A model generated the notes under the pieces. That model saw only the letters and a program-made list of their open reading frames with translations, did not search any database and had not been told where the DNA came from. This document shows positions 13,278 to 64,000 of a stretch of DNA of 64,000 nucleotides, in pieces. Made by a program: the position numbers and the translations under genes. The stretch spans positions 466,181 to 530,180 of the forward strand of contig JAXLWL010000003.1 of the NCBI GenBank assembly GCA_046328505.1, written 5' to 3'. Position 1 is the stretch's first letter; each line of letters opens with the position of its first letter. This DNA comes from Anaerolineae bacterium (GTDB lineage: Bacteria; Chloroflexota; Anaerolineae; Epilineales; JAHCIE01).

Positions 13278-15263
13278 CTAGCGCTGCGCCTTGCCTGGCT
13301 CCTCGTCGAAGCTGTACGCCTTCCCTACAAGCGGCAGATACGCGAAGTGTGTGTATGCAACCCCCGGCGTTCCGCTCGTCGCCGTTGGAGTCGGTGTTCG
13401 CGTCGCGGTAGCCGCCGGTAGCCCCGTCGTTGCCGTCGGTGTGGGCGTTCGCGTCGCGGTAGCCGCCGGTAGCCCCGTCGTTGCCGTTGGAGTCGGCGTC
13501 CGCGTCGCGGTGACCACGGGCGTCAGGCTCGCGGTCGGCGTCGGTGTCCCTGTTTGGGATGGCAGGCCGAGCGTTTCGGTTGGTGTCGGCGTCTCCGTCG
13601 CCTCGACTGTCTCGGTCTCAGTCGGTGTCGGTGTAGCGGTCGCCGACTCGCCGGGCGCGCTGAGAACCACGCCGTAGCCCGTCAGGCTGACGGAGCCATC
13701 GCTCGACTGACCCTGGTTGGTAATCACGAGGACGATGCTCTGGGTCCCGGCCGGTGGCGTGAAGCCCGCGAGCGACGCGTTCTCCCCCGGTCCCGCGATC
13801 TTCGAGAGAGGAAACACCTGCAAATCATCGCCGGTGTCGGCGACGACGCTCGCCCGCAGCGCGCCGTTCGACGTCGCATTCACCATGTCGACGTTGTAGG
13901 CGCCGCTCGTTGGCAGTCCAATGTAATTGATGGAGTACGTGTCGCTGATGACCCCGATATAGGTCGGGCTGCCGGCCGTGAGCTCGCCATCGTTGACGAT
14001 CGGCGATCCGCTCATGTAGGCAGCGATCCCGTCGCCGTCGCTGAAGCAGTAGGGGTCGGCGACCGGGCACTTCTTGGTGAAGCGGATGGCAATGGCGAAG
14101 TTGTGGAACAAATCGTTGAGGTTGCTGCCCTTCGCCTTCAGCGCGTTGTCGTACGCCGGGATGGCGGCCTGCCCCGCCGCCACGAACGCCAGGAAGTCCT
14201 TGTACACCACCTCCCCGCCGCCCGGCGTGTTCAGCCCACCGTTCTGCTCAGACGCGTAGCGGAACATCGGCCAGTTCGAGTACCACCCCGCCTTCGGATA
14301 GGTCGCGAGGGATTGCTGGAACAGCGGCCAGAGGTAACCGTAGTTGTCGTGGCTGTCCGGGTAAACCTCGTCCTCGGCGTATGTCGCCGTCGACTCCGTC
14401 CACATCCCCTCGACGGTCTGCGATGGGTAGCCGACGCCAAACTGGATCGAGTGCACGAACTCGTGGGCCGTCGTGGCATTCAGCGCCTGCAGGGCCTTGG
14501 CCACGTCGCCATTGGTGAACTGTACAAGGTCATTGTTGATGACCATGCACGATGCCCACGCATCGGTCTCCGTCGCCGGCGTGTTCGGGTTATTACCGAT
14601 GAAGCCGGTGTACGGCCCGCCGACAATCGTCACGTAGCCGTATAGCTTGCTGTCGCTGGAGGAAGCATCGTTGACCTGAACCGGGTACTTGCCATAGGCG
14701 TTCTCCGCGGTGAACGGCGGCTTCGGCCAGTCGTACGACGTCACCTCGACGCCGAACGCCGTCTCGAGGCCGGTCTTGTACTGATCGATGGTCAGGCCGG
14801 CGATGTCGCCATAGTTGATGACGAAGTCCGTCGTCTCCGTGGTATTGGGGCCGTCCGGCTTGTTGCACAACGTCCCCTGCGGGCGCGTGAGCCGGGTTAG
14901 CTCCGCCACGGTGGCCGGCGAGAGCGCGGTCACCTTGCCCGTCCCCTGGTTCTGCAGCGTCTTGTTGATCTCCGCTACGGCCGCCGTGCCTTCCCAGCCG
15001 GCCGTGCCGTGATACTGCGCGGGCAGCTTCGAGATGTCGTACACGGCGTAGGCCAGGTACAGGATGCGCTGCTCGGCGGTGATCTCACCGCGGCTGTACG
15101 CTTGATTGATCAACTGCTCGGTCGACAGGGGCCTAGAACTGGCGGAGGATGCTGCGGCGCCGGCTGACTGCGCCAGGAGAGGCAGGGCGGCCAGTACAGT
15201 GAGCAGGGCGAGCATCGCCAGGACAAACGCGAAACGACGCGGCCGAAATGGAACGGTTCGCAT
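13278..15263 (-). CDS. secreted HExxH zinc metallopeptidase with C-terminal Thr/Pro-rich linker and YLPLVGK tail
   Basis: signal peptide; TTAHEFVHSIQFG (HExxH); TP linker with repeated TTGLPAATATRTPTPTA; C-terminal FAYLPLVGKAYSFDEE; ATG 15263 with AAGGAG. Confidence 0.8.
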   Translation of the reverse strand: MRTVPFRPRRFAFVLAMLALLTVLAALPLLAQSAGAAASSASSRPLSTEQLINQAYSRGEITAEQRILYLAYAVYDISKLPAQYHGTAGWEGTAAVAEINKTLQNQGTGKVTALSPATVAELTRLTRPQGTLCNKPDGPNTTETTDFVINYGDIAGLTIDQYKTGLETAFGVEVTSYDWPKPPFTAENAYGKYPVQVNDASSSDSKLYGYVTIVGGPYTGFIGNNPNTPATETDAWASCMVINNDLVQFTNGDVAKALQALNATTAHEFVHSIQFGVGYPSQTVEGMWTESTATYAEDEVYPDSHDNYGYLWPLFQQSLATYPKAGWYSNWPMFRYASEQNGGLNTPGGGEVVYKDFLAFVAAGQAAIPAYDNALKAKGSNLNDLFHNFAIAIRFTKKCPVADPYCFSDGDGIAAYMSGSPIVNDGELTAGSPTYIGVISDTYSINYIGLPTSGAYNVDMVNATSNGALRASVVADTGDDLQVFPLSKIAGPGENASLAGFTPPAGTQSIVLVITNQGQSSDGSVSLTGYGVVLSAPGESATATPTPTETETVEATETPTPTETLGLPSQTGTPTPTASLTPVVTATRTPTPTATTGLPAATATRTPTPTATTGLPAATATRTPTPTATSGTPGVAYTHFAYLPLVGKAYSFDEEPGKAQR

Positions 15264-15335
15264 GGCACGTCTCCTTAACAGAACCGCCATCGTCGGTCTC
15301 ATCATGAAACGCAACGGTGGCGTTTAGGTCATCCA

Positions 15336-15364
15336 GTAAGGGCAGGTTTGAAACCTGCCCTTAC
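15336..15364. terminator. strong hairpin between the two protease paralogs (possible terminator/attenuator)
   Basis: perfect 11-bp stem gtaagggcagg/cctgcccttac with loop tttgaaa; no clear U-tract. Confidence 0.35.
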
Positions 15365-15402: not shown

Positions 15403-17196
15403 TTACCGCGTCAGTGATGGCGGAACCTGATCGAAGCTGAATTCCTTCCCGACCAGGGGCAGATACGTAAAGTACGAGTATCCGCCGGGCGGCGGCGTAG
15501 GCGTGTCGCTCGGAGTCGGTGTCGCCGCTGGCGTCGGAGTCTCTGCCGGCGGCGTGGGTGTGCCGCCTTCACCTGCCGTTCCAGCGGTCACGCGATAGGC
15601 CGTCATGCTCACCGAGCCATCACTCGACTGGCCCTGGTTGGTCACGACCAGAACGACGCGCTGGGTGTTGGCCGGCACGGTAAAGCTCGCCAGAGTCGCC
15701 GTCTGGCCGGGGCCGGCCGTGCCGGGCACCGCCACGACGGTCAGACTGTCGCCGGTGTCGGCGACGACGCTTGCCCGCAGCTCGCCGTTGGTCGCGGTGT
15801 TCGCCACCTCGACGCTGTAGGCGCCGCTCGACGGCAAGCCGACGTAGTTGATGGAGTACGTGTCGCTGATGCTCCCGGTGTAGTTCGCGCCGACCGAGGC
15901 CACCTCGCCGTCATTCTGGATGGGGGTATTCTGCATCTTCAGCGCGATCCCGTCGCCGTCGCTGAAGCAGTACGGATTGGCGACGGGGCACTTCTTGGTG
16001 AAGCGGATGGCAATGGCGAAGTTGTGGAACAAATCGTTGAGGTTGCTGCCCTTCGCCTTCAGCGCGTTGTCGTATGCCGGGATGGCGGCCTGCCCTGCTG
16101 CCACGAACGCCAGGAAGTCCTTGTACACCACCTCCCCGCCGCCCGGCGTGTTCAGCCCGCCGTTCTGCTCAGACGCATAGCGGAACATCGGCCAGTTCGA
16201 GTACCACCCCGCCCGCGGGTAGGTTGCGAGGGATTGCTGGAACAGCGGCCACAGGTAGCCGTAGTTGTCGTGGCTGTCCGGGTAAACCTCGTCCTCGGCG
16301 TATGTCGCCGTCGACTCGCTCCACATGCCGCTGACTGTCGGGGATGGGGAGCCGACGCCAAACTGGATCGAGTGCACGAACTCATGGGCCGTGGTGGCAT
16401 TCAGCGCCTGCAGGGCCTTGGCCGGATCTCCCCCTGCGAACTGCCCCATGTCATTGTTGATGACCATGCACGTGGCGTAGGCATCGGTCTCCGTCGCCGG
16501 CGTGTTGGGGTTGTTACCGATGAAGCCGGTGTACGGCCCGCCGTCCGTCGTCACGTAGCCGTACAGGTTGGCATCCGACGTAGACGCATTGGTAACCTGC
16601 ACCGGATACTTGCTGTACGTGTTGGCCGCGGTGAACGGCGGCTTCGGCCAGCCGAACGACGTGACCTCGACATCGAAAGCCTTGTCGAGGCCGGTCTTGT
16701 ACTGATCGATGGTCAGGCCACCGGCGATGTCCCCATAATTGATGACAAAGCTCGCGGTCTCCGTAATGTTGGGCCCATCCGGCTTGTTGCACAACGTCCC
16801 CTGTGGGCGCGTGAGCCGGGTTAGCTCCGCCACGGCGGCCGCCGAAAGGGGTGTCACTTTGCCCGTCCCCTGGTTCTGCAGCGTCTTGTTGATCTCCGCT
16901 ACGGCCGCCGTGCCTTCCCAGCCGGCCGTGCCGTGATACTGCGCGGGCAGCTTCGAGATGTCGTACACGGCGTAGGCCAGGTACAGGATGCGCTGCTCGG
17001 CGGTGATCTCACCGCGGCTGTACGCCTGATTGATCAACTGCTCGGTCGACAGGGGCTTAGAACTGGCGGAGGATGCTGCGGCACTCGCTGCGCCGGTCGA
17101 TTGGGCCAGCACAGGCAGAACCGCCAACACGGCAAGCAGGGCGAACAGGAATGTCGCCACAACGAGGCGTCGTGGCAGAGGGCGGGATATTCGCAC
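15403..17196 (-). CDS. secreted HExxH zinc metallopeptidase, tandem paralog
   Basis: same architecture; long stretches nucleotide-identical to 13278-15263; GTG 17196 with AAGGAG; C-terminal FTYLPLVGKEFSFDQ. Confidence 0.8.
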   Translation of the reverse strand: MRISRPLPRRLVVATFLFALLAVLAVLPVLAQSTGAASAAASSASSKPLSTEQLINQAYSRGEITAEQRILYLAYAVYDISKLPAQYHGTAGWEGTAAVAEINKTLQNQGTGKVTPLSAAAVAELTRLTRPQGTLCNKPDGPNITETASFVINYGDIAGGLTIDQYKTGLDKAFDVEVTSFGWPKPPFTAANTYSKYPVQVTNASTSDANLYGYVTTDGGPYTGFIGNNPNTPATETDAYATCMVINNDMGQFAGGDPAKALQALNATTAHEFVHSIQFGVGSPSPTVSGMWSESTATYAEDEVYPDSHDNYGYLWPLFQQSLATYPRAGWYSNWPMFRYASEQNGGLNTPGGGEVVYKDFLAFVAAGQAAIPAYDNALKAKGSNLNDLFHNFAIAIRFTKKCPVANPYCFSDGDGIALKMQNTPIQNDGEVASVGANYTGSISDTYSINYVGLPSSGAYSVEVANTATNGELRASVVADTGDSLTVVAVPGTAGPGQTATLASFTVPANTQRVVLVVTNQGQSSDGSVSMTAYRVTAGTAGEGGTPTPPAETPTPAATPTPSDTPTPPPGGYSYFTYLPLVGKEFSFDQVPPSLTR

Positions 17197-19152: not shown

Positions 19153-22100
19153 TTACTGGCCGACCGTGATGTAGGGCAGGTAGATGCAGCCGGTGCGGAC
19201 ATCCACCGTGCCTGACGCATCCACCGGTAGCGCCTCGCTCTTCGTGTTCGAGAGTGTCAGCGATGCCTGATCACCGTTCGCCAGATCGATGCTCATCGCG
19301 CCGCACCCGATCACGCGGAAGGTGATCTGGGCCAGCGACCCGCTGCCATCGACCGGGCCGTCCAGGCGAGCGCCCGCCAGGCGGACGATGTGCTTGCCGT
19401 CAGCCGTCACCGCCGTGTTCTCCATCGGCACGATCAGCGAGCCCTCGGGCAGCAGGCTGCCGGCCTTCACCTGGACGCCGGGCTTATCGGCGTCACTGTC
19501 GACAACCTCGACGACGCGCGGATCGTACGCCAGGTTCAGCGCGCCGCCGTAGAAGCCGGTCAGGTTGTCGAGATTGACGGTCACAGTCACCAGGTCGCCT
19601 AGTCCGTAGGTCGCCTTCGGGTTGTCCACCGCCAGCCGGGCCTTGGCCGGAGCGACGTTCGCCTGCGCCGCCTTGCTTGCCGCCGCGCCCGCGCCCAGCG
19701 CCACGGTGCTGTGCAAGCCATCCGTCGGCCCAACGCGGTCGAAGTTGTTGCTGACAAGCACCAGGTCGAAGATGTTGATCTTGTTGTCGCCGTTGATGTC
19801 GGCACGCGGCTCGAAGTTCGGCATTCCCAGCGCGCTATCGTATGCCGACGCGACCAGGGTCAGGTCGAACAGGTTGATGAAGTTGTCGTTGTTCGCGTCG
19901 CCACCAATCATCGTCATGTTGCCGAGCGGCGTGTCGATGCTGGTCACATCGAACTCGCGCCGGATTGGCAGGTAGCCGTCCATGGTCACGGTCAGGACGT
20001 GGTGACCGTACGTCGTCCCGGCGATGTCGAAGTCGCCGTTGACGTCAGTCACCGCCGAGCCTTCCGCGCCGTCATCGATGAGTACCAGGGCTCCCGAGTA
20101 GTTGGTGCGGCCCTCGAGCGCAACCGTTCCGGTCACGTCGTCGCGGTTGGGCGGCGGGAGCGTCTTGCAAGAGATGACCTGCGAGTAGTCGGAGTACTGC
20201 CCATCGGCGCTCTGGTAGAAGCGCGATCGGTAGAAGTAGAGCGTGTTACCCGACAGGCCCATGTTGCGGTAGCTTCCCTGGCCGGACGGCAGCACCGCGA
20301 CCTCGCTCCAGTTCACGTCGTTGAGCGAGCGCTCGATGTGGATGCTCGTCGCGGCAGCGCCGGGCGATGTCCAGATCAGGTCAATCGCGGTGGACGAGTA
20401 GACGCGGCAGCTCCAGTCGGGCGGCGGCGGAGGCGGCTTCTGCGGCGTCGTACACGACGCGGGTCCGCTGAAGGCCGTCTGGACGCCGTTCTTGATGCCG
20501 GCTACCTGGTACTGATAGCTCGTATTCGGCTGGGCGCTCTTGTCGTAGTAGATCGACGTGCCAGCCGGCTGCTGCACGGTCGGGCCAGACACGAAGGAGG
20601 CCACGCGCTGAATGACGAGCGCATCGTACGCAGCGTTGTTCTCCCACGTAATGTTGATCTGGTTGCTGTTGACGGTGATACACTGCACGTTGGACGGCCC
20701 GAGAAGGCCCGTCGGCGTCGGCGTCGGCGTCGCCGTATTGGTCGACGTGTTTGTCGGCGTATTCGTCGGCGTGCTCGTGCGGGTCGACGTTGGCGTGTTG
20801 GTCGGTGTCGCCGTGTTCGTCGACGTCGGCGTGTTCGTCGCCCTCGTCCCTGTTGTCGTTGGGGTCGGCGTGTATGTGTTCTGGCCGGTGGGCGTGACCG
20901 TGCTCGTCGACGTCGCCGTACTAGTCGCCGTCGCCGTGCTCGTCGGCGTCGCCGTGCTCGTCGGTGTCGCCGTGTTCGTGGCCGTGCTGGTCGCCGTCGC
21001 CGTCGGTGTATCGGTCGGGCGCGGTCCGGGCGGCTCCTCTGGGTTCACCCAGATATCGCCGCCGTCGTTCGGGTTGTACGTAAACTTGACCCGGGCCGTG
21101 GTCGGGTTGCCGGTGATGGCCGGCCCCTCGGCGTTGAAGAAGTCGATGTGGCCCGTCGAGCCGCCCACGGGGAAGTCGGCCGGGCCGACACCGCCCGTGT
21201 TAGGCTGCGGGATGCCCGGATACGGCGAGCCTGGGTTAGCGGCCCGCCACGCGGCGGCAAGATCGGCCTGGGACGACTGGGAGCCGTCCAGCTCCGGGTT
21301 GATATCGGTGCAGGCAAACAGCGACAGACGGCTCTGGGTCGAGACCAGGCTGCTGGTGAGCAGGTAGTACTGGTCGTTCGGGAGCTGGATGTCGGTGTAG
21401 CTCGCCGGGATTGTCAGGAACTGCTCGGTGCTCCAGTTGTCCCGCACAGGCGACCCGACCGCACCGGCCGCGTTGATCCACAGCATTTCGCGCAGCTCAC
21501 CCGTGAAGCGCGGCTCCACGCTCTCCGCCCGGACTCGGACGACAAGGGGTGATGCCGCGCGCGGTGCGCCGACGCAGTCGCTGCTGCTGTGGACGCCCAC
21601 TGAGGCGAACTGATCGGGAGTGATGCGGTCCACGTCGAGGGCGATGGTGTGCGCCATGTTGAACGGCGGGACCTGGGAGATGACGTTCGTGTCCGGGTTG
21701 TTGAGCACCGCGCCGCGGAAATAGGCCTGGAGGGCGATGCTATCCTCGCTGTTGACGAACGGTGCGACCTTGGGAACAGGCGTGCGCAGGGTGATGTACT
21801 TGAACTCATACGGCTCGGTGCCCGGCCCGCTGTCGCTCGGCGCCGTATCGATGGCGACAACGTTGTACTCGTGGCCGTCGACGAAGAAGCGCTTGAGGTA
21901 CCACGGGTCGCCCTTGGTCAGGTTGTGGCCGCCCTGGCCATTGTCGATCGCCGCGTAGGTTGCGCCCAACGCGCGGCCAACGGTGACGGAGACCGACTCG
22001 TCAAACTGGTTGACTGCGCCGACGTAGACGAACCAGGCGCCGTCCGTGCTGCCCAGGTTGTTTCCACCGTGGGGGAGGCGGCGCACGAAGTTGCGGTTAG

Positions 22101-25100
22101 CGATACCCATGTCGCCCACGTTGAAGGTCGACGACAGGATGAAATCGGGGTAGGACGAATACTCGCCGTTGCCCAAGGGGTGCAGACCGCCGCCCGCGTA
22201 CCAGAAGTCGAGGTCGACGCTGGGCTGCACGTTGTAGCCCCCAACGGCGACGTTGCGCAGCTTGATCATGTGGTCCAGGAACTGGACGCTGTCGCCGCGC
22301 TTCAGTGTGATATTCTGGACCGAGAAGACTGCCAGGCCATCGAGCGGCAGGCCGGTCGGGCGCAGGTTGTCGAGAACACCGTTGCCGTTGAAGTCAGCCG
22401 AGATGCCCGTCTTTGCCGCCAGGCTCGTCTCGCTGTCCACTGTCACGATATCGGGTGTGCCGTCGAAGTTGGCGTCGAACGACGTGAGGCCGAAGCCAAA
22501 GCTCGGTGGCGAGGGCGCCCAGCCAATGCCCGCGTTGGCGGGCGGCACGGGCAGCTCGTTCCGCCCGGTCGCCATGGGGAATGCCATACGCGTCACGCCC
22601 GGCTGGCCGTGCGTCGGCTGGTCCCGAGTGTCGAGGAGCAGGAATGTCAGCTCCTGCATCAGCGCCGGGAAGCGGTAGTCCTGGCGGCGATTGCCCGTAT
22701 AGAGAATCTTGTCCAGGTACGTTGGCTCGTACCACATCCGCTGGTAGACCTTCTCGCGGCCGTCGTTCTGCTCCACCGAGATCTGCGGGTAGAGCACCGA
22801 GAGCGGCTCGCCGCTGTTGCGGAACTCGTCCATGTACGCCGGGTTGAAGGTGACGGAATCTTTGGGCGGCGCCTGGGTAAGCTGTGGGTTGAAGGGCGCC
22901 CAGGGATCGGTGTACGGCGGCACTTCCACAGGATAGCCACTAATCGGGTCGTTCGTAATGCTGAGGTCGCCCGCGGTAGGCGTAATAGCCTCCGTCGGAC
23001 TTATGACGCCGCGGCCATACACGCGTAGGCTCTGGCTGTCCATGTAGACCTTGCCGGACGGGTTGTTCGTCGGATCGCCGGAGCTCGCCGGGTCGAACCA
23101 GAACTTGAACCGATTCTGGAGACCGGCGATTGCTTGCTGTCCTGGCGGTGTGTTACCGCCCCACACATACGGCTGGGGCTGGTTCTGCACCCAGAGCTGG
23201 TACTGGCTCTGATTGTCGAGGAAGGCGCTCGTGAACAGGTACAGGTCCGGGTTCGCAACCTCTTTTCCGGTCACGGGATCTATGCGCGTTCCGGTGCGGA
23301 TTGGGTTGAGATCCGGGAACGCGAACGCCGTATACGCCCAGGGCAGAGTCCAGATCTGCTCGCTGTAGAAGAACTCACTCTCGACGTTACCCTCGTCCGG
23401 CGGCCGTTCGCCGTACTTCTCGCGCAACACGCTCAGTAGAGAGTTATGAACTGTCTCCTGGCGGTAGACGAAGTACATCTCGCGCGGGTCGCTGTATGTT
23501 GCGGTTGCACCGCCCAGGTTAGGCCCCGAGGTGTACGGGAATGGGCCATTGGCCTGGATGATCGGCGGCACCGGTCCAACGAGCTTGCCGATGAAGCCGA
23601 CCTGGTCGTAGCCGTTGGTGGGCGTCATCCCGGCTATGGCGTTGACATCGGTGAAGATGTAGTGCTCATAGTTGTACGGCGGGAGAACGGCCAGCGGGTC
23701 GTTGACGGCGTAGCCCTTGAGGCGGACCGAGTGCTGCGCGATGGTGATGTTCGGCCCCTTCGGTGTCGGGGTGCGCAGCGTGATGAACTCGAACTCCGAC
23801 TGATCGGCCACTGGCGCCGCCGTCGGGTTTGTCGTCGAAGGACAGACACCGTTCGTAGCAGCAGTACAGCGCACGGCCATCGCCACCACGTTGTACTCAT
23901 GTCCATCGACGTAGAAGCGCTTTAGATACCACGGGTCGGGCGGCTGGCGGTCACCCACGCCCGGCGCGGATTCCATGGCCGTGAAGGGGTGGCCGACGGC
24001 GCGCCCGAGCCACAGGCCAACGGTTCCGTCGGCCGTATCGATAGACTGTGCGTACGCGAACCACGGTGTCTGGCTGGTGCTGCCCAGGTTCGAGCCTGTT
24101 CCGCCGTTGATGACACTGCGGAGCGTCTCCACCGGACCCTGCGTGCCGGCCAGCGCCATGTCGCCTGTTGCGATGAGCTGGTTGCCCAGGTAGCGCGGCT
24201 TCAGGTCGCCGGTGTACCATACGTCCAGCGACACGGCATTGTTGAAGATGCCGGCGACGCGCACGACGTGGTCGAGGAACTGAGCGTACTGGCCCTGGCG
24301 AAGCGGCGTGCCGCTCAAGTTGACGTCGAGCAGGGCAAGCTCAGTGCCATCTGGCGCCTGTCCGGAGCCGAGGGTCAGCCCCTGGAGTCGACCGTCACTG
24401 TTGAAGTCGGCGGCGAGATTCGTCTTCTGGAAGAGCGTTAGCTCGCTGTCCACGGTGACGATGTCGGGCGTGCCGTCGAAGTTGGCATCCAGGGTCGTGA
24501 GACCGTAGCCGGTTGCGTCGGCTGGGCCGTTATCGGCGTCGATCTGGCCGTCGGGACCGAAAAGGTCCGCCTTCCGCTGCCCGACGGGAAATACCATCTG
24601 CGTCCCGCCTACCTGGCCGAAGATTGGCTCAGGCTTGTTGGGACCGTTCGGGACGGGTGGGTTGTTCTGCATCAGCAGGTAGGTAAACTCTTGCTGAATG
24701 GCAGGGTACCACACGTCGTCGAAGAACACCGCCTCGCCGTTGATGATGCGCGGGTCGGTCGGCTGGCCCGTCGTCGGGTTGCGGGTCAGCCTGTTGTCGG
24801 CATTGAGGTCCTTGTCCCAGTGCTGCGGCTCGTACCACAGCCGGTACCAGACCTTCTCGGCCGCGTTGGGAAGACGCGGGCCACCGCTGATCTGCCCGTA
24901 GAGGCGCTGATTCTCATCGGGCGTGACGGCCTCATTCATGTAGGCCGGGTTCCACGTCACGGAGTCCTTGCGCGGGGCTTGGGGGTGCTGAGGAATGAAT
25001 ACACCCAGCAGGTCGGTGTACGGGGCATCTTCCGGCACGTGGCCGGTGACCGGATCGAAAATGGCCGGGGCCAGGCCGGCGCCGGGATCGAGGACGTTGT

Positions 25101-25314
25101 CCGCGCCCGCGCCGAAATAGCTTCGGCCATACACGCGCAGTGTGTAGTAGGCTGACGTGGCCTGCGCTCCCACGCCCCCTGCCAGCAGGACCCAACCTGC
25201 GGCCACCATGATGGCCAGCAGTGCAACGCTGAGCGCGACCATTCGCAGCGGTCTGCGACGGGCCGTCAGCCAACTTGCGGCGATGGGCTGGCGTGTTTGA
25301 TCATCTTGAGACAT
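19153..25314 (-). CDS. giant secreted multidomain surface protein (2053 aa): internally duplicated ~500-aa module x2, TP-linker, FN3 x2, CarbopepD_reg-like, type-I dockerin, C-terminal cohesin
   Basis: ATG 25314 with GGGAGGAGG RBS; signal/[25 protein letters not shown]; duplicated blocks ([22 protein letters not shown](Y/F)[10 protein letters not shown]); dockerin repeats [13 protein letters not shown] / [13 protein letters not shown]; cohesin-like C-terminus; ends ...[11 protein letters not shown]. Confidence 0.85.
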
Positions 25315-25460
25315 GACTTGCCTCCTCCCGCACACGACGAAGCAGTGCGCACTAACCGTTACAACGGCAGTCGGAGGCAAATGTTATGAATAATGCCCTG
25401 CAGGCCGTCTCAGCTTTTATATCTTCTTCATATTTGTTTGCATTCGCTGAAAGAAGCCTT

Positions 25461-28234: not shown

Positions 28235-28306
28235 CACGACTCCTAACGAAGGATTGTGAAGCGACGCAACAACTCGGTCAACGCCGAACAATCTGCCGCA
28301 ACCGAC

Positions 28307-37723: not shown

Positions 37724-37857
37724 CGCCAATCCCTCCTTCGATAAGAATGAATCTGGAAGGACACAGATAAGTGCTGTTGGAGCCCAGGCGGCTCCGTCCA
37801 TCCCCCAGTACAATAAAAGCCTACGCATTACAACACGTAGCATCACGTAGCAATGTA

Positions 37858-37886
37858 ATAGTATCATATTCTTCGCATTCTGTCAA
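37858..37886 (-). promoter_or_regulatory. sigma70-like promoter for the cohesin/LysM lipoprotein gene
   Basis: minus strand TTGACA-17 nt-TACTAT in an AT-rich divergent intergenic region. Confidence 0.5.
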
Positions 37887-38189
37887 CCTCTTTGGCGCGG
37901 CATTTTCTTTCCAGGGCCGAAAATCGAGTCTTTTGCTGCTGCAGCGGTTGAGTTGGATGCGAATTAGGATGCTCGCCCATATCCTAAGGCAATCTGTCAA
38001 CGTATTGTATTTAGATGGTCACGCGGGATTACCTAGGGGGTACTTTCCTGGCGTCTATCTGCGTTTCGGATTTCCCGTCCTGTGTCTCAACCCTTGTGAG
38101 GCGCACCGGCAGCAACCAGGCTCGCCCGAGCGACGCCGGAAACGCTCACCCGCTGCGCTCCCCCCCCAACACCAAGGAGGATCAAGTCA

Positions 38190-41100: not shown

Positions 41101-42139
41101 GTATGACGAAGCGCCCTTTGTCCGCATTCTGGACATCATCCCGGCCGGCACGCAGTATGTCGGCCATACCCAGGGCAACTGCGTCAACAGTGATATCCAG
41201 AACGGCTGCTTCATCGGGAGCCTCATCCCCGGTCAGAACGGCCAGTTCAAGATCACGATCCGCGTCCCGAACTTGAGCGAGTCCACCAACGGCGCGATCA
41301 AGCCGGGTGTGACCCTGGTCAACACCATCACCATCGACTCCGGCTTCTCGCCCAGCGGCCCGCAGTGCGGCGTCCCCGACTACTTCAACAGCGACAACGT
41401 CGCGAAGTGGTCGACGGACATCCTGAGCGACTTCGGCGACTCGCCGGTTGTCGCCCAGCCGCCGCTGCCCGGCTACGGCGCGGGTTCCACCGACACCTAC
41501 AACGGCAACTACATCCACGAGTGGCTCGGCCGCGCCGTCAGCGGCGAGCGCTCCGTCTCCGACGCCAAGGACCCCGATGGTGAGCCGAACGTCACCTCGA
41601 CGACCTTCAACGGCGACCACCAGGACGACGGCGTCTACTTCCGCAACCCGTGGGACACGAGCCTGCCGCAGACGCAGCGCGTCTACCGGCCCGGCGAGCT
41701 GGCCGTGACCGCCAAGGTCATCGTCTCGGCGCGCGACCCGCAGAGCAGCCGCTACGGCGCTGACCCCAGCAAGCAGATCTACATCAGCGCCTGGGCGGAC
41801 AACAACCGCAACGGCGTCTTCGGCGATGTGGGAGACATGCTGGTCTTCCAGTGGCACGGCTACCCCGGCAGCACCGACGACTACGGCAACATCTGGCCCG
41901 GCGACAAGAACAACGTCCTGCTCAACATCCCGATCCGTGTGCCGGGTGAGACCGGCTGGATGTTGGTGCGCGTCCGCATGAGCTACGGCGCGCCGCCGAC
42001 ACCAAACGGCCCGCTGGACTACGGCGAGACCGAGGACTACCTGATCGGCACGTTCCCCGGCTACGACTGGGACAACTACCTGCCGATCCCCGGCCTGCCG
42101 CAGCCGCGGCCGGCCTACCCGGCCGGCCTGACGCAGTAA
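38190..42139 (+). CDS. large secreted surface protein with multiple DUF11 (conserved repeat, TIGR01451-type) domains
   Basis: ATG 38190 with AAGGAGGA RBS; signal peptide; repeated ...V(V/I)(R/T)NTGN..L..(P)LTD(T/S)(F/W/Y) DUF11 signatures; C-terminus ...DNYLPIPGLPQPRPAYPAGLTQ. Confidence 0.85.
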
Positions 42140-46148: not shown

Positions 46149-46469
46149 ATGCGCAATTATCGAATCGCTCTCGGCATCGGCGCTGGCCTCATGATCATCC
46201 TTCTCATCGTCGGTATTCTCCAGGACCCGGCTGCGTTCCTGGCCGACGCCGCGCGCATTCCCCAGGCGTGGGCATCCCTGGCGCTCTGGCTGGCGGTCTC
46301 AGTGCTCGTCTTCTGGCTCGCCGCGGAGGCCCTGACGCGCCTGCTGGTCGGCAAAGGGCTGGCCCAGATGCGAGCGGACGGCGACCCGCAGTTCGAGCAG
46401 AACCTTGTGCTCGCCGGATTGATTACCCTGGCTATCCTACTCCTCGTCGCCCAGGGCCGCGTCCCCTGA
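46149..46469 (+). CDS. small membrane protein (3 TM)
   Basis: 106 aa, hydrophobic, good GC3, weak RBS. Confidence 0.5.
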   Translation: MRNYRIALGIGAGLMIILLIVGILQDPAAFLADAARIPQAWASLALWLAVSVLVFWLAAEALTRLLVGKGLAQMRADGDPQFEQNLVLAGLITLAILLLVAQGRVP

Positions 46470-46952
46470 GGACGCCTTGCCGCTCACCAGCGGCAGGTAG
46501 ATGCGGTATCCGGGCGCGAGCGCGAAATCGCGCGCAGGATGCTGCCGCAGGTCGTCTGTCGTGTAGGTATGCTCGAACGGTAGGTAGCCCGCGGCTGAAA
46601 CCTTCAGGGGCGCCAACCCGCAGGGGAAGTAGAACCCCGGCAGGAACAGACTGTACCGCCCATCTGCGTCGGTCGTGGCCGAGTAGGCGCGTGGGAAGCA
46701 CGAGGTGACCAACACAGTGGCGTCAGGAATGCCCAATCCGGTGCTGGCGTCGGTGACCTGGCCGGTGAGTGTGATGTCGGCGGGCGTCGGTGTGAGAGTT
46801 GGCGTTGACGTTGTGTCGGGTGTCGAGGTAGTGGAAGGAGAGGGTGTCGCGTCAGATGGGGTGGATAACGGTTGGCCAGATGCGAACGTCCCAAACAGCA
46901 GGAATGCCGCCACGACGCAGAGGCCAACGATCAACGGTTTCTGCCAGTTCAT
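46437..46952 (-). CDS. small secreted protein: TP/SP-rich linker, CarbopepD_reg-like domain, C-terminal YLPLVSGK tail
   Basis: ATG 46952 with GGAGGG; signal peptide; GQVTDASTGLGIPDATVLV...DADGRYSLF; ends ...YRIYLPLVSGKASSGDAALGDEE. Confidence 0.7.
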   Translation of the reverse strand: MNWQKPLIVGLCVVAAFLLFGTFASGQPLSTPSDATPSPSTTSTPDTTSTPTLTPTPADITLTGQVTDASTGLGIPDATVLVTSCFPRAYSATTDADGRYSLFLPGFYFPCGLAPLKVSAAGYLPFEHTYTTDDLRQHPARDFALAPGYRIYLPLVSGKASSGDAALGDEE

Positions 46953-55835: not shown

Positions 55836-56499
55836 CGGCCTTCACCCCTTGCGTCTGCGCTTCGTCTTTGCGCACGTCCTCAGGACGCGCTTCTTCACTG
55901 AAGTGGATTTCAGGCCCGGGCAGGACTTCGTCAATCAGGCCGTATTCCTTGGCCGCGATGGCGTCCATGTAGCGGTCGCGGTCGAAGTCGCGGGCGATGC
56001 GCTGGATGGTCTGGCCGGTGTGGTGGGACATGATCTCGTTCATGCGGCGCTGAAGACGGACAATCTCACGCGCCATGATCTCGATGTCCTGGGTGTAGCC
56101 ACGCGCGCCGCCACCGGCGGGGTGCATGTGGATGGTGGCATTGGGAAGCGCGTAGCGGCGCCCCTTCGTGCCAGAGGCCAGCAACACCGTACCCATGCTC
56201 GCCGTCATGCCGACCGCCACGGTCGAGACGGGAGCGCGAATCGCCTGGATTGTGTCGTAGATTCCAAGACCGGAATACACGACACCACCCGGCGAGTTGA
56301 TGTACATCCGAATCTCTTTCTCCTGGTCCTGGCTGTCGAGCCAGAGGAGCTGAGCAATGATGAGATTGGCGATCTGGTCATCAATGCCCGTGCCGAGGAA
56401 GATGATCCGCTCCTTAAGCAGCAAGGAGAAGATATCCATATGGCGTTCGCCTCGGCCGGTGTTCTCGATAACCATGGGGATCAGAGCCATGGGATCCAT
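55822..56499 (-). CDS. clpP: ATP-dependent Clp protease proteolytic subunit
   Basis: 225 aa; ...YINSPGGVVYSGLGIYDTIQ...GMTASMGTVLLASG...HMHPAGG; AAAGGAA RBS. Confidence 0.9.
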   Translation of the reverse strand: MDPMALIPMVIENTGRGERHMDIFSLLLKERIIFLGTGIDDQIANLIIAQLLWLDSQDQEKEIRMYINSPGGVVYSGLGIYDTIQAIRAPVSTVAVGMTASMGTVLLASGTKGRRYALPNATIHMHPAGGGARGYTQDIEIMAREIVRLQRRMNEIMSHHTGQTIQRIARDFDRDRYMDAIAAKEYGLIDEVLPGPEIHFSEEARPEDVRKDEAQTQGVKADGKD

Positions 56500-56625
56500 C
56501 GAGAGTTCCTTTCTGCGTATCTCTTGCGCTAATCTCTTACTGTCGCTAGACTGCTAAGCCAACACAGTGTACTAAGATAGATGGCGTAGATGCGCGTCGC
56601 CTTACGCGGCAGCGCGAGCAGCCGC

Positions 56626-57987
56626 TTACTCAGCGGCGCTGCCCGCCTCGACCGCGTTCTCCTCGGCCTCCGCCTCATCATCCGCCGCGTCCGCAACGGG
56701 CGCCTCGGCCGCGATCTCTTCCGCGTCCTCTGCTACCTCATCTTCCGGTTGGTTCAGCGTCTCCATCTGGTCTGCCGGCCAGCTCGGCCCAACCCCAGCA
56801 ACAGTCTCGACAAGCCAGTCAAGAGTGGCGCGGAGGCGAGCATTGCCGCGCTGCTCGGCGGGGAAATCCGCCGGCGGCTCGATGTTCTCGCGCTTGGCGA
56901 TATCGTCCAGAAGCAGGGTGCGCTCAATCCGCCGTTGCAGTTCTGGCTCAAGCTCCGCGCGGAGATCCTCCATCGTCCGGTTGGTCATGCGCAGGAAATT
57001 GTCCAGGGTGAAGCCCATGCGCTCCAGCGCCTTTTCCTGGCGCTCCACCTCTTCCTCGAGCTGCTGCTGTAGGAGAATGGGCGGGAAGCTGACGACGGCC
57101 TGCGCCAGCAGGGCATCGAGAACGTCGTTCTCGACCTTCTCGCGCGCCTCGCGCGACGCCTGGAACTCCAGGTTCTGGCGGATGCGCATCTCCAATTCGT
57201 CGAGCGTCTGGAACTCCTCGCTGACCCCCTGGGCAAAGGCGTCGTCCAACTCCGGCAGGTTCTGCTCCTTGACGCCATGTAGCGTCACCTTGAACTCCGC
57301 CGTCTTCTCGCGCAGCGCTTCGCGCTCGAAGTCTTCCGGGAACGTGAGGCTGAACTCGCGCGTCTCCCCGTCGGACATGCCAATCAGCTCGTCCATGAAA
57401 CCGGGCGGGAACTCGCGGAAGGATTCCTCCTTGAGAACGAACTCGTCCCCGTAGCTCTCGATGATGCGGTCCTCGCCGGTCTCGCCGACGACGTCCGCCG
57501 TCACCATGTCTTCGAGCTGAGCGGGGCGCTCGACCGGCGTCCAGGTCGCCTGCTGCTGCTGGAGGCGCTCGATCTGGTCTTCTACGTCTTCATCGCTCAC
57601 TTCCGGCAAGGTCGCTTCGACCTTGACCGAGTTATAATCGCCGGGATCGACTGTAGGAGCCATGGGGACAAGAAGCTGGAACGTGAGCGGCTCATGTGAG
57701 AGCACCTTGACTTCGCCGGGAGCGAAAGGCTCCAGCTTCTGCTGCTCGACCGCTTCCTTGTAAATCTGCGGCCCCATGTCGTCGATGGCCGCCTCGAGGA
57801 CCTGTTCCTCACCGAACACGCGGACGACGTGGCTGTAGGGAGCTTTGCCCGGGCGGAAGCCGGGAATCCGGTAACGCTGGGAAATGCGGCGCGCGGCCTG
57901 CTGCTTGGCGCGTTCTACCCGCTCCGGCTCGACTTCAACGACCAGAACGGTTTGGTGATTTTCGACACCTTGCTCGGTAATATTCAA
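56626..57987 (-). CDS. tig: trigger factor
   Basis: TTG start with GGGAGGA RBS; ...RIPGFRPGKAP... N-domain, PPIase and C-terminal acidic tail. Confidence 0.9.
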   Translation of the reverse strand: MNITEQGVENHQTVLVVEVEPERVERAKQQAARRISQRYRIPGFRPGKAPYSHVVRVFGEEQVLEAAIDDMGPQIYKEAVEQQKLEPFAPGEVKVLSHEPLTFQLLVPMAPTVDPGDYNSVKVEATLPEVSDEDVEDQIERLQQQQATWTPVERPAQLEDMVTADVVGETGEDRIIESYGDEFVLKEESFREFPPGFMDELIGMSDGETREFSLTFPEDFEREALREKTAEFKVTLHGVKEQNLPELDDAFAQGVSEEFQTLDELEMRIRQNLEFQASREAREKVENDVLDALLAQAVVSFPPILLQQQLEEEVERQEKALERMGFTLDNFLRMTNRTMEDLRAELEPELQRRIERTLLLDDIAKRENIEPPADFPAEQRGNARLRATLDWLVETVAGVGPSWPADQMETLNQPEDEVAEDAEEIAAEAPVADAADDEAEAEENAVEAGSAAE

Positions 57988-58181
57988 CGCGGAGTCCTCC
58001 CAATAATACGGTAAGGATAGTATAGCATATCAAGGCTAAAAGGGGAAAGATGGTTCAGGGGTCTTACACCGACCGCGCCATAACTTACCCGTCAGCTTGC
58101 CAGGCGCGTTCGGGCGTATATAATAGCTTCAGTCCTGTTAGCCTCTACATCGACCTTGAGTTGTCCAGGAGCCACATTACC

Positions 58182-58674: not shown

Positions 58675-60687
58675 TCAATAAGGGCCGATAGCTACGTTTC
58701 CTAACCCAACCGCGTTGTCTTTCGCGCCTTCGCTCGCACTCACCACGGGCAGCCGCTCCAACGTCTCCAGCTCGTAGAACCCCACCTCAAAGCGATAGTC
58801 CGCGGTCGGCGCATCCTTCGGAATGGGTAGCCGGACGCGGTGCTGAATGATTTCTCCCTTGTGCCACGTCGACGTCGGCACCAACCGCTCGCACGGCTCG
58901 CTGTCAGACTGCGCCCACATCGGGTCGCCCGTCGCCGGGTTCTTGGGGCCGAGCAAGTGAACGAACACCGTGTAGTTCGCCTCCATCTCATCCAGCGCCT
59001 CGAAGTAAACGTTCATGTCGATCTCCTGCCCTGGATCATAGTTCGGAGCATCGAGATCATAGCCGAGCAGCCGGATCTTGCCGGCCCAGTTCGCGTCGAC
59101 CTTCACCTCTGGATTGACGTTGATCTGGGCGCCCGGTGGGACGTGGTACGCGAAGAAGTACGGCTGCGTCTGGTGCAGCGGCCCGACCTGGGCAATCTCT
59201 CCCTTGGGGAAATAAGTCTCTACTGTGTCCAGCCCGTACTTGTCCTCCTCGGGCACAACGATGAACGTCGCGCCATTGGGCGCCTCGGATGGGAAGCGCA
59301 GGCACACATTCCCGTTGTAGCTCCGCACATCCGGACGCATATTCGAGCTGAGCTGTAGCCCGACGTGCTCGGCGGCGATGGGGTCCACGTAGACAAGCTC
59401 GTCCTGCGGCAGCGTGCCGATATACTCTCCGACGGCGGACTGGCCGGCCTCGAAGTGGGTAAACAGGTCGCCGTCGCTCCCAAAGGTCACGAAGTAGTCA
59501 TACGATGTGACAAGCCCGGCAGCTACCAGGCCGATGAGCAGTAGCGATGCCAGCCCGACGCCAGGTTGCACGGCCCAGGGCGTATAGCGCAACAGCAGAC
59601 GGCGCACAAGCTCCCAGGCGACCAGCGCCCCGATCGCGCCCAGGATCGCCACGGCAGGCAGCGTTGCGCTGGCCCGCTTCTCCGCCGCGCCCAGGCCGGC
59701 CAGCATGGACGGCACCATCATGACCCCAAGCCAGAACAGGAGAAAGGCGTAGGGGAACCGGCGGATCCGGAGGAGGGCAATTATGATTCCGAGCATGAAC
59801 AAGGCGGACAGAAACGGGTCCAGGCCGGGGTGGTAAGGGATGTTCTTGATGGGGGAGTCGTTGCCGCGGATGCTGAACATCAGCAGCGTGTCGACGACCT
59901 GGTCGCGCAGCGCCTGTAGGCCGCTGGAGGACTCGCCCGGGTTGTTCAGCACAAGGGCGTCCTCGACGCGCTGGTTGAACTCGGTCGGGTGGTTGACCGC
60001 GTAGGCCGCCAGCGGCAGAGCCACGACCGCGGCGAGGACAAGGACCAGCGCTAGATTGCGCCACGGCGCCGGCGGCCAGCCGGGCCGCCAGAGTCTCACC
60101 CCAACGAATGCCGCGACGACCAGGACCGGGACGAGCCGGATAGCCTGGTAGCTGTACATGCTGAGGCCGAGCGTCACGCCGCAGGCGGCAAACATCGCCA
60201 CGCGCCCGGTGCGCAGTCCGCGCCAGAGGAAATACACGACAAGGGCGGTAAACAGGGGAACGAGGATGGCACGCACCCCCTGTCGGCTGAGCTGGACGTG
60301 CCAGTAGGAGACGCAGACGAACAGCGCGGCGGCGAGCGGCCCCCACGCTCGCAGCACGCCATCCTCGTCGGCCAGCACCTCGCTCGCTGCGAGGTACACT
60401 GCCGGAATGGTGAGAATCCCAACCAGCGCCGAGGATAGGTAGATGCCCAGCCCGCCGGGGCCGGTGAACAGGTAGAAGAAGGCGACGAGGTAGCTGAAGA
60501 GCGCCTCGCGGCCCGCGTTCGTTGCCATGAACACCGGCCGCGCGCCCCGAAGAATCTCCAGCGCGTCAAGGCCGTAGAATGTTGCGTCGAAGCTGGGACC
60601 GGGAGGAATGGAGGCGATTTTGTAGAGTCGCAGCGCGGCGCCGATAAAGAGAATCGCCAGGAGCAAGAGCCGGCGTGTCTTGTTCAT
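58675..60687 (-). CDS. GT-C-fold membrane glycosyltransferase (ArnT/PMT-like, GT39/GT83) with C-terminal soluble domain
   Basis: N-terminal LLLLAILFIGAALRLYKIASIPPGPSFDATFYGLDALEIL... and ~11 TM; ATG 60687 (alternative GTG at 60696). Confidence 0.8.
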   Translation of the reverse strand: MNKTRRLLLLAILFIGAALRLYKIASIPPGPSFDATFYGLDALEILRGARPVFMATNAGREALFSYLVAFFYLFTGPGGLGIYLSSALVGILTIPAVYLAASEVLADEDGVLRAWGPLAAALFVCVSYWHVQLSRQGVRAILVPLFTALVVYFLWRGLRTGRVAMFAACGVTLGLSMYSYQAIRLVPVLVVAAFVGVRLWRPGWPPAPWRNLALVLVLAAVVALPLAAYAVNHPTEFNQRVEDALVLNNPGESSSGLQALRDQVVDTLLMFSIRGNDSPIKNIPYHPGLDPFLSALFMLGIIIALLRIRRFPYAFLLFWLGVMMVPSMLAGLGAAEKRASATLPAVAILGAIGALVAWELVRRLLLRYTPWAVQPGVGLASLLLIGLVAAGLVTSYDYFVTFGSDGDLFTHFEAGQSAVGEYIGTLPQDELVYVDPIAAEHVGLQLSSNMRPDVRSYNGNVCLRFPSEAPNGATFIVVPEEDKYGLDTVETYFPKGEIAQVGPLHQTQPYFFAYHVPPGAQINVNPEVKVDANWAGKIRLLGYDLDAPNYDPGQEIDMNVYFEALDEMEANYTVFVHLLGPKNPATGDPMWAQSDSEPCERLVPTSTWHKGEIIQHRVRLPIPKDAPTADYRFEVGFYELETLERLPVVSASEGAKDNAVGLGNVAIGPY

Positions 60688-60809
60688 CGCTCGCACTCGT
60701 AACTTATGTGAGGCACAGTCAGCTTGTCATTCAAGAGGTTACGAATTGTGACTCTGACTGTACAGCGACCAATTATAGCGCCAAGGCTGTGCCAAGGCCA
60801 TTTTACCCC

Positions 60810-61358: not shown

Positions 61359-61381
61359 CAACGGCTCCCAATCTAGAGCCG

Positions 61382-64000
61382 TCACTCCGCCGTCGTGAGG
61401 CTGTACATTCGGAAATTGTCATAGCGCGTGTCACCGTTTGCGACCCATGTCTGGCTCGCCAATCCCTGCCACGCCGGTGACGGCAAGCCCGGAATTGTGA
61501 GACGCGCCAGCTCTTGCCCGTTAGCGTACACGCGTACGCCGTTTCCCTGCCGTAGCGCCATCAAGTGGTTGGGCGTTGTTCCGAGGCGGAGGAACGGTGA
61601 CGCTGTCATCGGGTAGAGCTGCGACTGGTTTCCCCCGACCCACTGCACCACCTGGAACGCGCCGTCGTTGGTTACCTGGAATGCGACCCACTGCGAGCTG
61701 TCATCGCTCAGGCCGAGCATGATACCGTACTGATCAGTCACGTCCTCTGTGCGGCGCCCGTCCAGCTCGACCACCATATCCCCGGTCTTCGCTCCCGGCC
61801 CCGACCGCCCGACTGACAGGCCCACCTGCTTGATGAGAACCTGATACTCGCCGTTCACATAGCCCACCGTGAAGGCCGCGTTGTCCGCCACCGGCCAGCC
61901 GCTGGCCGCGCTGGTGAACGTCTCATTGATGAGCAGCTTCCCGGCGAACACCATCACACTGCTGCCGGACACGACCGGCGTCGCGCTCAATGTGCCGGTG
62001 AACTGGTACTGCTGCCACGTCACGCCGCTCGGCACGACCCCATCGCGGCAGCTCGTCGATTGGCCGACCAGGAACGTCGGCGTATCGCTGCCGGAGAGCG
62101 CGGGAACGGCGCTGCCGTTCTCGCCGACAACGGCCCAGCTATAGGGTACGGTCAACGGCACGCTCGCCCGATTGGTCACCTGGACACACATCCGAATGCC
62201 CTCGCCGGACTTGAAGGCCATCCGCTCGGCGTTCAGGGTATCCGCCGTCCAAGCGCGGTCGATCGTCAGCGTGGGTGGCGGCGTTGTCGGCGTCGGGGTC
62301 AAGGTGATCGTGGGCGTCGGCGTGCTGCCGCCGCTGGGCGTGGCGATAAAGTCGTAGCCAACGTCCTCGACGCCGTAGTAGTGGTGCCAGCTAATCAATG
62401 GCGGGTAGAAAGAGTAGCCGTCCTTCTCCGCCCACAGAGTCACGTCCGCCTGGCCCGGAATATACATGAACTGCGACATATAGAAGCCGTTGGCATCCGT
62501 CGTCGCCACAACCGGACCGGGCGCCTCGGCTCCCAGGTAGAAGTGCAAGTTGACGCCGGCCAGCCCCGGTCCCGCGTCGCTCCCTACGTGCACGTAGCCG
62601 CGCACGCGCACCCCCAGGATCGGTGTTTCCGTGGGAGTGGGCGTCTGGTTGACGGCGCCGGTGACCGTGGCGGTCGCGCTCGGCGTTGGTGTCGGCGTCC
62701 TCGTGGGCGAAGGCGTCGCCGTCGCGGTGGAGGTGGGCGTCAGGGTGGGCGTGCTGCTCGGTGTCGCGGTAGCGGGCAACGTGGCCGTGGCCGTCGGTGT
62801 CGCCGTGAGCGCGGCGAGGCACTGGGTACCGGCGAAGTTGACCTCGCGCGTGCCGCTGCCAGGCAAAGTCAGGCTCACACTCCGCGCTCCGTAGCCAGGC
62901 GCTACCGCCGTGAGGATGTAGTCGCCGGCCAGGAAGTCGAGCATAGGCCCGATGCTGTAGCGCCCGACACTGTCCGTGGCGCCAACGTAGCCGGTTCCTT
63001 CGAGCGTGACCGTCGCTCCGGCGAGGCGCTGGCCGGTGCAGTTCTGCACCGCCCCTGTGATCAGCAACGTTGGCGCGGGTGTCACCGTGAGCGTCGCCGT
63101 CGCACTAGGCGTCGCAGTCAGTGTCGGCGACGCCGTGGCTGTTGCAGATGACGTCGCGGTCGCGCTTGGCGCCGTAGTCCGCGTCGGCGACGCCGTGGCT
63201 GTCGCCGATGACGTGGCGGTCGCGGTCGCGCTCGGTGTCGTCGTCAGCGACGCCCTCACCGTAACCGTCACGGTCGGCGTGGCGCTAACGGTTGGGGTTG
63301 TCGTGCCCGTCGGCGGCTGAGTGGCCGTTCCTGTCGGGCTTGGCGTCTTGGTCGGCGGCGGCGTCAGGGTGAACGTAGGCGTATCTGTCGGCGCCACGGT
63401 TTCGGTCGGCGTGTCCGTGGCCGTCGGGGTCCAGGTCTCGGTTGGCGTCGGCGTATCGGTCGGCGTCGGCGTATCGGTCGGCGTCTCCGTCGCCGTGGGC
63501 GTGAGCGTGGGACGGGGTGTGGCAGTGGGACGCGGGGTCGGCCCCGTCACGGCGCGCATCACCATCGGCAGGTAGCTCTGCCAGGCTTGCAGATGCAGAG
63601 TGATCGACGCCGTAGATTGGTCGCCGTCGGAGTCACGCGCGGTCAGCGTGATTGTGTGATCGCCGGGCGACAGATTCCGTGCGTCGAGCGTCTCGCCCGT
63701 TCCCAGGATGCCATCCCGATCCGACGACCAGGTGAGCGCCGTGCCTGTCAGTGCGCCATCCTCCGGGTCGTCGGCGCTGCCGGACAAAATCACCGGCTGG
63801 CCCTGCACGATATGGTCGCCGTCGCCGGGCGACAGAATCGTCACCCGCGGCGCCTTGCGCGGCACGCTGAGCGCATCGATGTCGGCGAGGGCGGTGTAGA
63901 AGCCGTCGCTGGCGAGAACGCGGATCTGGCCGTAGCTGCTGCCGGGCAGCTCGCGCGTGTCGACGCTGAAGCTCGTCCCTGTCACATCGACGGCAATCGG
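61382..64000 (-). CDS. large secreted surface protein (partial, N-terminus beyond window): Ig/PKD-like module, YLPMV motif, three TP-linkers, two CarbopepD_reg-like domains, C-terminal beta-rich domain
   Basis: open reading frame continues without a stop to 64000; ...[30 protein letters not shown]...; long PT repeats. Confidence 0.8.

Follow-up and report, generated by a model that had tools for sequence, protein, structure and literature searches.

The window analysed here, a stretch of 64,000 nucleotides from an Anaerolineae bacterium (contig JAXLWL010000003.1, which is 1.33 Mb long), encodes several exported proteins that carry a short peptide built around Tyr-Leu-Pro, the YLP-box. An earlier note on this DNA had singled out the pattern Y-L-P-[LMYI]-[VIP] in six window proteins, namely two metalloproteases (MP1 and MP2), a very large cohesin/dockerin protein (GIANT), a DUF11/GEVED protein (DUF11), a small CarboxypepD_reg protein (CPD) and a multi-module protein (P867). 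By six-frame search and translation of the six open reading frames (ORFs), every one of the quoted strings was found in the ORF named for it (Table 1). The motif is the YLP-box already catalogued in NCBIfam and is not new; MP1, MP2, GIANT, CPD and P867 proved to be members, but DUF11 is a chance match in a Pro-rich tail. Two related Anaerolineae metagenome-assembled genomes (MAGs) share the gene block of the window.

Table 1. Proteins, YLP-boxes and other features of the window (TP, Thr/Pro; ST, Ser/Thr; aa, amino acids).
Feature	Coordinates	Strand	Description
MP1, longest ORF	13278-15314	-	ends ...FAYLPLVGKAYSFDEEPGKAQR before the stop
MP1, NCBI product U0822_13150	13278..15263	-	661 aa, secreted HExxH metalloprotease
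MP1 YLP-box YLPLVGK	13320..13340	-	20 residues from stop, after long TP-rich linker
MP2	15403..17196	-	597 aa, secreted HExxH metalloprotease, MXAN_6640-like family; ends ...FTYLPLVGKEFSFDQVPPSLTR before the stop
MP2 YLP-box YLPLVGK	15445..15465	-	20 residues from stop, after TP-rich linker
GIANT	19153..25380	-	~2075 aa; TP/ST-rich linker, CarboxypepD_reg, dockerin, C-terminal cohesin
GIANT box variant IYLPYITV	19162..19185	-	followed by GQ and stop; no K/R at +6
CPD (NCBI MFN8473147.1)	46437..46952	-	171-aa secreted CarboxypepD_reg protein; ends ...RIYLPLVSGKASSGDAALGDEE before the stop
CPD YLP-box YLPLVSGK	46476..46499	-	20 residues from stop, ~7 past Pfam domain end
P867	61382..64000	-	Ig-like, CarboxypepD_reg-like and Laminin_G_3-like modules split by long TP/ST linkers
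P867 internal YLP-box YLPMVMR	63554..63574	-	between N-terminal Ig-like module and first TP-rich linker
DUF11/GEVED protein	38015-42139	+	ends ...NYLPIPGLPQPRPAYPAGLTQ before the stop
DUF11 string YLPIP	42077..42091	+	in Pro-rich tail; not a YLP-box
DUF11 Pro-rich C-terminal tail	42077-42136	+	xPGPxQPRP, directly behind GEVED domain
Tandem transporter genes	26009-30531	-	two SulP-STAS-cNMP-binding genes
Second SulP gene	28307-29983		C-terminal SulP half only
N-terminal part of second SulP gene	29914-30531		in another frame
Lipoprotein	35921-37882	-	two cohesin and three LysM peptidoglycan-binding domains
Split clpX	54551-55655	-	at least two overlapping frames
clpX frames	55066-55530, 54551-55429		both match AAA_2/ClpB_D2-small pieces
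clpP	55822-56553
tig	56626-58029
Glycosyltransferase	58675-60726	-	PMT_2 family (GT-C, dolichyl-phosphate-mannose-type), membrane

The two metalloproteases carry the same box core. MP2 is identical (100%, P0001) to the NCBI protein U0822_13155 of an Anaerolineae MAG; its best family match, to NF045524 (E 1.2e-26), lies under the family cutoff, and that to DUF6055 is weak. Its box is followed by a 13-residue tail, EFSFDQVPPSLTR, and both box and spacing are kept in the orthologues at L001 and L002 and in P0002-P0006. Because MP1 is a paralogue of MP2 (P0004, 83% identity), the six proteins count as five independent cases instead of six. Signal peptides, which had been ascribed to all six, are visible at the N-termini of MP1, MP2, GIANT, DUF11 and CPD, with a basic and then a hydrophobic region read by eye in MP1, MP2, GIANT and CPD; the ORF of P867 runs past the end of the window, so that its N-terminus is missing.

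At the C-terminus of GIANT, an LP-centred box or a close variant ends nine of the ten homologues that cover the cohesin domain, the last residues being for instance FLPLVQVGGQ, YLPLISESALSR, YLPLILKVR, YLPAVIRSWAP and YLPYAANLAE. In their alignment Leu and Pro are invariant, and the spacer behind the conserved last strand varies in length. The AlphaFold model of GIANT places the last cohesin strand at TVDVRT (residues 233-238) and leaves the box (241-250) as coil, at a predicted local distance difference test (pLDDT) score of ~61; together, the variable spacer and the coil rule out that the box is itself the last cohesin strand. Because homologues end in LP-centred boxes and the model leaves this segment as coil, the GIANT box is a real variant lacking K/R. 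In P867 the box is internal, and three of six homologues of the Ig-like module upstream of it stop at a box exactly there (P0299 with TYLPLITKE, P0302 with TFLPVVAANQEN and P0303 with LFLPVALVPGERP as their ends).

DUF11 was rejected as a member on two grounds: its string YLPIPGL falls outside the box consensus, and its closest homologue P0149 (79% identical) has YLPPP, while the next five, P0150-P0154, are without YLP. What is kept in these DUF11/GEVED proteins (the window protein and P0149-P0154) is the Pro-rich tail directly behind the GEVED domain. A separate DUF11/CLIPPER protein found elsewhere does end in a proper box, QTIFLPLIGR.

NCBIfam (release 20) holds two models, NF050076.1 (sort_motif_YLP, 11 positions, cutoff 15 bits) and NF053834.1 (ultrashort_CTERM, 10 positions, cutoff 10 bits), both named "YLP-box putative sorting motif-containing protein", which overturns the earlier view that the motif had not been described. 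When whole proteins and isolated tails were scanned, three of the six instances passed a curated cutoff. CPD scored above both cutoffs (16.5-17.1 with NF050076, 13.3-13.9 with NF053834), as did P867 (15.5-16.2 and 12.9), and MP2 exceeded that of NF053834 (12.9-13.1) with no hit to NF050076. No hit was reported in either model for the isolated MP1 peptide, despite a core identical to that of MP2, and none for GIANT or DUF11. In full-length sequences these models mostly leave the YLP-box unreported; the NCBI annotation of the source genome does not use the YLP-box name, and a Pfam scan of the window proteins returned no model for it.

The window motif and the NCBIfam YLP-box have in common the consensus [YF]LP[LIM][VI]x[KR] and an extreme C-terminal placement, described by profiles of 10-11 positions. 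They differ in that MP1, MP2 and CPD have a tail of 12-13 residues past the box instead of a K/R end, and in that GIANT carries a variant without K/R, unmatched by both models. The window supplies members and variants of a catalogued motif, and no new class. What it adds is modest, namely the forms with a 12-13-residue tail and the K/R-less form, unseen by the curated models, and P867, a clear internal box whose homologues end at the box.

The YLP-box is non-random and tied to secreted proteins. When each of the 40 called proteins of the window was shuffled residue by residue, 5000 times over, the pattern of the earlier note arose 0.13 times per shuffle, compared with six observed, and 0.004 times in the last 25 residues, compared with five observed; neither observed value was reached in any of the 5000 shuffles. 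For a genome-wide count, surrogate data were used: at least 120 metagenome loci, three long contigs and three homologue sets. The loci came from a search for DNA encoding YLPLVxR and then a stop, and among the matches listed they gave 63 non-redundant seed ORFs, of which 61 had sufficient length for tabulation. In the non-seed ORFs of the loci listed, the strict box occurred 8 times in 8,425 residues of tails (the last 25 residues) as against 5 times in 104,605 residues of bodies, a 20-fold enrichment (Poisson P = 1.2e-8), and a reversed-motif control gave 1 in tails and 5 in bodies. A crude signal-peptide heuristic was positive for 27/45 box ORFs and 58/271 non-box ORFs of the same listed loci (Fisher P = 6e-7). 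Inspection by eye puts a signal peptide on about 35 of the 45 box ORFs, and the obvious exceptions are cytoplasmic chance matches, a likely citrate synthase (judged from its N-terminus by eye) and a LysR-type regulator. In these surrogate metagenome ORFs the motif is thus not as frequent in cytoplasmic proteins, or at random positions, as it is in the tails of secreted ones.

The consensus can be written [V/L/I]-[Y/F]-L-P-[L/I/M]-[V/I]-x-[K/R]; MP1, MP2 and P867 fit it, and CPD has its K one position later. Position -1 was V, L or I in 46 and position -2 was R or K in 20 of the 61 tabulated boxes (among the metagenome matches listed). In the same set, only 5 boxes had at least 50% T/P/S in the 30 residues upstream, so that adjacency to Thr/Pro linkers, which had been put forward as a defining feature, is incidental. 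Most commonly a protein with a signal peptide has the box as its last 7 residues. A short tail behind it, as in the window, or a Pro-rich linker with further domains, as in P867, is less common. The distance of 10-20 residues from the C-terminus given by the earlier note holds within the window, but in the commonest form the protein stops 7 residues after the Tyr. A fixed distance of 20 residues to the stop was also considered and judged a coincidence, as DUF11 is no member, MP1 and MP2 are paralogues, and distances of 6-12, 17 and 21 are found elsewhere.

The domains that precede the box are diverse and include HExxH protease, cohesin, CarboxypepD_reg, Ig-like, DUF11/CLIPPER, Big_3_5 and pAdhesive_15 domains. 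At one metagenome locus (L127) four consecutive genes end in a box.

The protease family gives the fullest picture of where the box may stand. Among 120 MP homologues (35-100% identity), 82 have a box. In 34 cases it lies at the extreme C-terminus, with ends such as YLPLAIR, YLPLIVK, FLPIVLR and FLPLVK, and in 37 between the protease module and added C-terminal domains. In 28 of these 37 internal boxes K/R stands at +6, typically followed by a Pro-rich stretch (for example YLPLIRKDPPP). In 24 cases a variant, Q[IL]YLPLLxNG, is found 20-40 residues after the signal peptide, and at least 11 proteins of the family combine an N-terminal box with a C-terminal one. The two NCBIfam models match 12 and 11 of 32 internal boxes, and 1 of 19 N-terminal variants; the latter may be a family-specific relative of the box. 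This variant (P0025, P0032, P0041, P0058, P0065 and others) lies about 15 residues before the mature protease domain, often in proteins that also have a C-terminal box. All cases seen belong to the MXAN_6640-like protease family, and MP1 and MP2 are without it. A further observation concerns the MP2 homologues P0076, P0077, P0082, P0092, P0093 and P0101, which have an internal YLP-box and an extra C-terminal domain, often with the ultrashort tail EF[VL]LRP(R) at the very end. Other MP2 homologues end in LTR, KTR or RRRP, and MP2 itself in PPSLTR. Endings of the EF[VL]LRP(R) type may be a second terminal motif.

AlphaFold models predict the box to lie in flexible, unstructured segments outside the folded domains. 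In the protease homologue P0025, the core (residues 70-575) is modelled at pLDDT >90, the N-terminal box segment at <50, and the C-terminal linker and box at 31-38 without secondary structure. Docking of the box on its own protein was not supported, both P0025 boxes standing at pLDDT <50 with no secondary structure. By Foldseek, the catalytic HExxH domain of P0025 (model m255511f45322), of an MXAN_6640-like/DUF6055-like family, is without a solved structural relative, and only the C-terminal beta-sandwich of the protein gives matches, to collagenase collagen-binding and pre-peptidase C-terminal domains.

We consider it somewhat probable that the YLP-box serves in Chloroflexota as a tethered recognition tag by which proteins are sorted to the surface or retained there, a mechanism that we infer from these patterns. 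Sec export would expose the box peptide as a tethered tag, which a dedicated extracytoplasmic partner would recognise, holding the box protein at the cell surface. Retention could be achieved by non-covalent docking, or by a cleave-and-attach reaction that would discard whatever lies downstream. Unlike sortase- or exosortase-type signals, such a tag would need no membrane-spanning segment. We favour this reading because the box is found on exported proteins with unrelated passengers, because box genes can be clustered, and because the peptide appears flexible and tethered. An anchoring role is also favoured since some MP homologues carry, at the position of the box, a hydrophobic helix and a basic tail that resemble LPXTG-type anchors; these tails fall just under the LPXTG-anchor and LAVTG cutoffs (15.8 vs 15.9 and 25.6 vs 27). 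The same holds for the absence of the box from the four lipoprotein-type exported proteins of the window (the LysM-cohesin protein, a META protein, a PD40 protein and a solute-binding protein). The behaviour of a sorting or processing signal, which the earlier note had proposed, is to this extent supported.

Several points weigh against surface sorting or retention. Internal boxes followed by domains of 160-420 residues, as in 37/120 protease homologues, would be unusual for a C-terminal sorting signal and fit a proteolytic processing site equally well, and 7 residues make a very short peptide for a specific anchor. The earlier note had suggested looking for a co-occurring processing enzyme, and none emerged: sortase, exosortase and rhombosortase-like genes are absent from the window, and about 125 box-gene neighbourhoods yielded no sortase gene and no recurrent candidate partner or enzyme. 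All-against-all clustering of 587 ORFs from the loci returned as recurrent neighbours only ABC ATPases, LacI regulators, ABC permeases, ClpB and response regulators. Pfam annotation of the 20-kb neighbourhoods of P0059, P0032, P0013 and P0058 likewise gave no sortase-like or recurrent peptidase gene. Full-text searches of the available literature library found no paper mentioning the motif and no experimental evidence. Finally, the restriction to one lineage, although supported, is read only from the organism names attached to some of the sources (Anaerolineae, Caldilineaceae, "Chloroflexi").

Comparison with known systems is useful here. Like the LPXTG signals of sortases, the YLP-box is a short Pro-containing peptide near the C-terminus of Sec-exported surface proteins with many unrelated passengers. 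It differs in being without the TG, the hydrophobic membrane-spanning segment and the basic tail, and in that it can be internal. As the earlier note had stated, no transmembrane (TM) helix with a basic tail follows the motif in the window proteins; the tails behind the box measure 0-15 residues, are polar or acidic and contain no hydrophobic stretch, and TIGR01167 matched none of them. PEP-CTERM/exosortase, GlyGly-CTERM/rhombosortase, PGF-CTERM/archaeosortase and MYXO-CTERM are also lineage-restricted C-terminal tags found on many proteins per genome. Such tags combine a motif with a TM helix and an Arg/Lys cluster, whereas the YLP-box combines a motif with a single basic residue. No model of these or of related exosortase, rhombosortase or archaeosortase signals matched a window tail at E <= 10, and the misfit to LPXTG, PEP-CTERM, GlyGly-CTERM and PGF-CTERM asserted earlier is thereby borne out. 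The MP protease family, as a further parallel, is named after the Myxococcus protein MXAN_6640.

The type IX secretion system (T9SS), with its C-terminal domain (CTD) and PorU sortase, offers a precedent for a TM-less C-terminal signal that is cleaved off, a surface anchor taking its place. A PorU-like cut-and-replace reaction would account for the variable sequence behind the box, which ranges from none at all to an entire domain. The T9SS CTD of diderm Bacteroidota is a folded beta-sandwich with a length of ~80 residues, whereas the Chloroflexota box, at 7-10 residues, is a disordered peptide. In the window, box and tail together measure 7-20 residues and are predicted to be unstructured, and the only T9SS-related match was spurious (9.6 bits, in P867). 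Dockerin-cohesin, SLH and LysM modules are likewise position-tolerant and linker-tethered and hold diverse secreted proteins at the surface, but they fold, measure 40-150 residues and have known receptors, whereas the YLP-box is a linear peptide. Linkage to peptidoglycan by the side-chain amine of an invariant C-terminal Lys, as in Braun lipoprotein, was rejected, as the terminal boxes of the protease family have Arg more often than Lys, some have neither, and the window boxes are not terminal.

The main rival to surface retention is that the box marks an endoproteolytic maturation site at module boundaries, where a secreted or surface protease would cut at or after the K/R at +6 and free N-terminal pro-regions, C-terminal tails or domains, with no attachment or retention. 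We regard this as rather unlikely, although the internal and N-terminal positions and the K/R at +6 favour it. Within the protease family alone, boxes mark three types of boundary, namely the stretch after the signal peptide (24), the junction of the protease module with added domains (37) and the C-terminal end (34), and the K/R of 28/37 internal boxes leads into a Pro-rich linker. Homologues of the first P867 module stop where P867 has its internal box. In the protease family, moreover, the box is preceded by a domain similar to collagen-binding domains and to pre-peptidase C-terminal domains, the latter so called because they are removed from secreted proteases. Against such a site, the commonest form ends at K/R, so that nothing or only 1-4 residues would be left to remove. 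The N-terminal YLPLLxNG form is without K/R and, with 1/19 NCBIfam matches, is possibly a different motif, and homologues with membrane-anchor-like tails at the same place indicate retention and not trimming.

It is very improbable that the box serves as a sequon or other recognition element in glycosylation, acting on the neighbouring Thr/Pro linkers or on its own Tyr. Four of the five real window boxes adjoin TP-rich linkers and a PMT_2-type GT-C glycosyltransferase gene lies beside P867, but the link to glycosylation made in the earlier note is unsupported by the T/P/S-rich count of 5/61 already given. The boxes of CPD and GIANT, moreover, stand almost directly behind a folded domain, and to our knowledge the strongly hydrophobic core is atypical of known O-glycosylation sites. 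That there is no functional motif, only chance or compositional matches or the last beta-strand of a preceding beta-sandwich domain, is hardly credible and already refuted for five of the six instances: the DUF11 instance is just such a chance match, and the CarboxypepD_reg domain has an internal G-Y-L-P of its own (YLPIR in GIANT, YLPFE in CPD), but against this stand the shuffle test, the tail enrichment in independent ORFs with its reversed-motif control, conservation in homologues despite variable spacing from the last strand, models that put the box outside the folds, and curated hidden Markov model (HMM) matches above cutoff.

Beyond a retention tag, a broader reading is conceivable, which we advance tentatively. 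The YLP-box may be the handle of a Chloroflexota-specific surface-sorting or processing machinery that would need no TM segment and would read a 7-10-residue peptide at the C-terminus, between domains, or as the N-terminal variant.

Other features of the window deserve mention. The lipoprotein with cohesin and LysM domains is encoded 10 kb from GIANT, and together with GIANT, which has both dockerin and cohesin, it resembles a cellulosome-style cohesin-dockerin surface scaffold. Within its first 1200 residues GIANT contains two copies of a ~600-residue module without Pfam match, which share strings such as SVT[WF]NPAYM.E and DPWYLKRF[YF]. P867 has several hundred residues of Thr/Pro/Ser-rich linker, and one small gene separates it from the PMT_2-family gene, whose product is a candidate O-glycosylation enzyme for these linkers. 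Downstream of tig and clpP, the expected clpX is split over overlapping frames, reflecting either a frameshift or an assembly error. In the tandem SulP transporter genes, the displaced N-terminal part of the second suggests a frameshifted copy. Scans of the window for tRNA genes and Rfam families gave no matches.

Chloroflexota, and Anaerolineae especially, are abundant in sludge, sediments and soils, and their envelope architecture and the retention of proteins at their surface are poorly understood. A 7-residue tag on secreted proteases, adhesin-like proteins and cohesin/dockerin proteins would allow cheap prediction of the surface proteome, and the box peptide could serve as bait, in peptide pull-down or phylogenetic profiling, for the machinery that reads it. 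If the broader reading given above is true, the long-tail, K/R-less and internal forms of the window would be variants that current HMMs miss, and a machinery that reads the YLP-box with no need of a TM segment would represent a new class of bacterial protein-sorting system.

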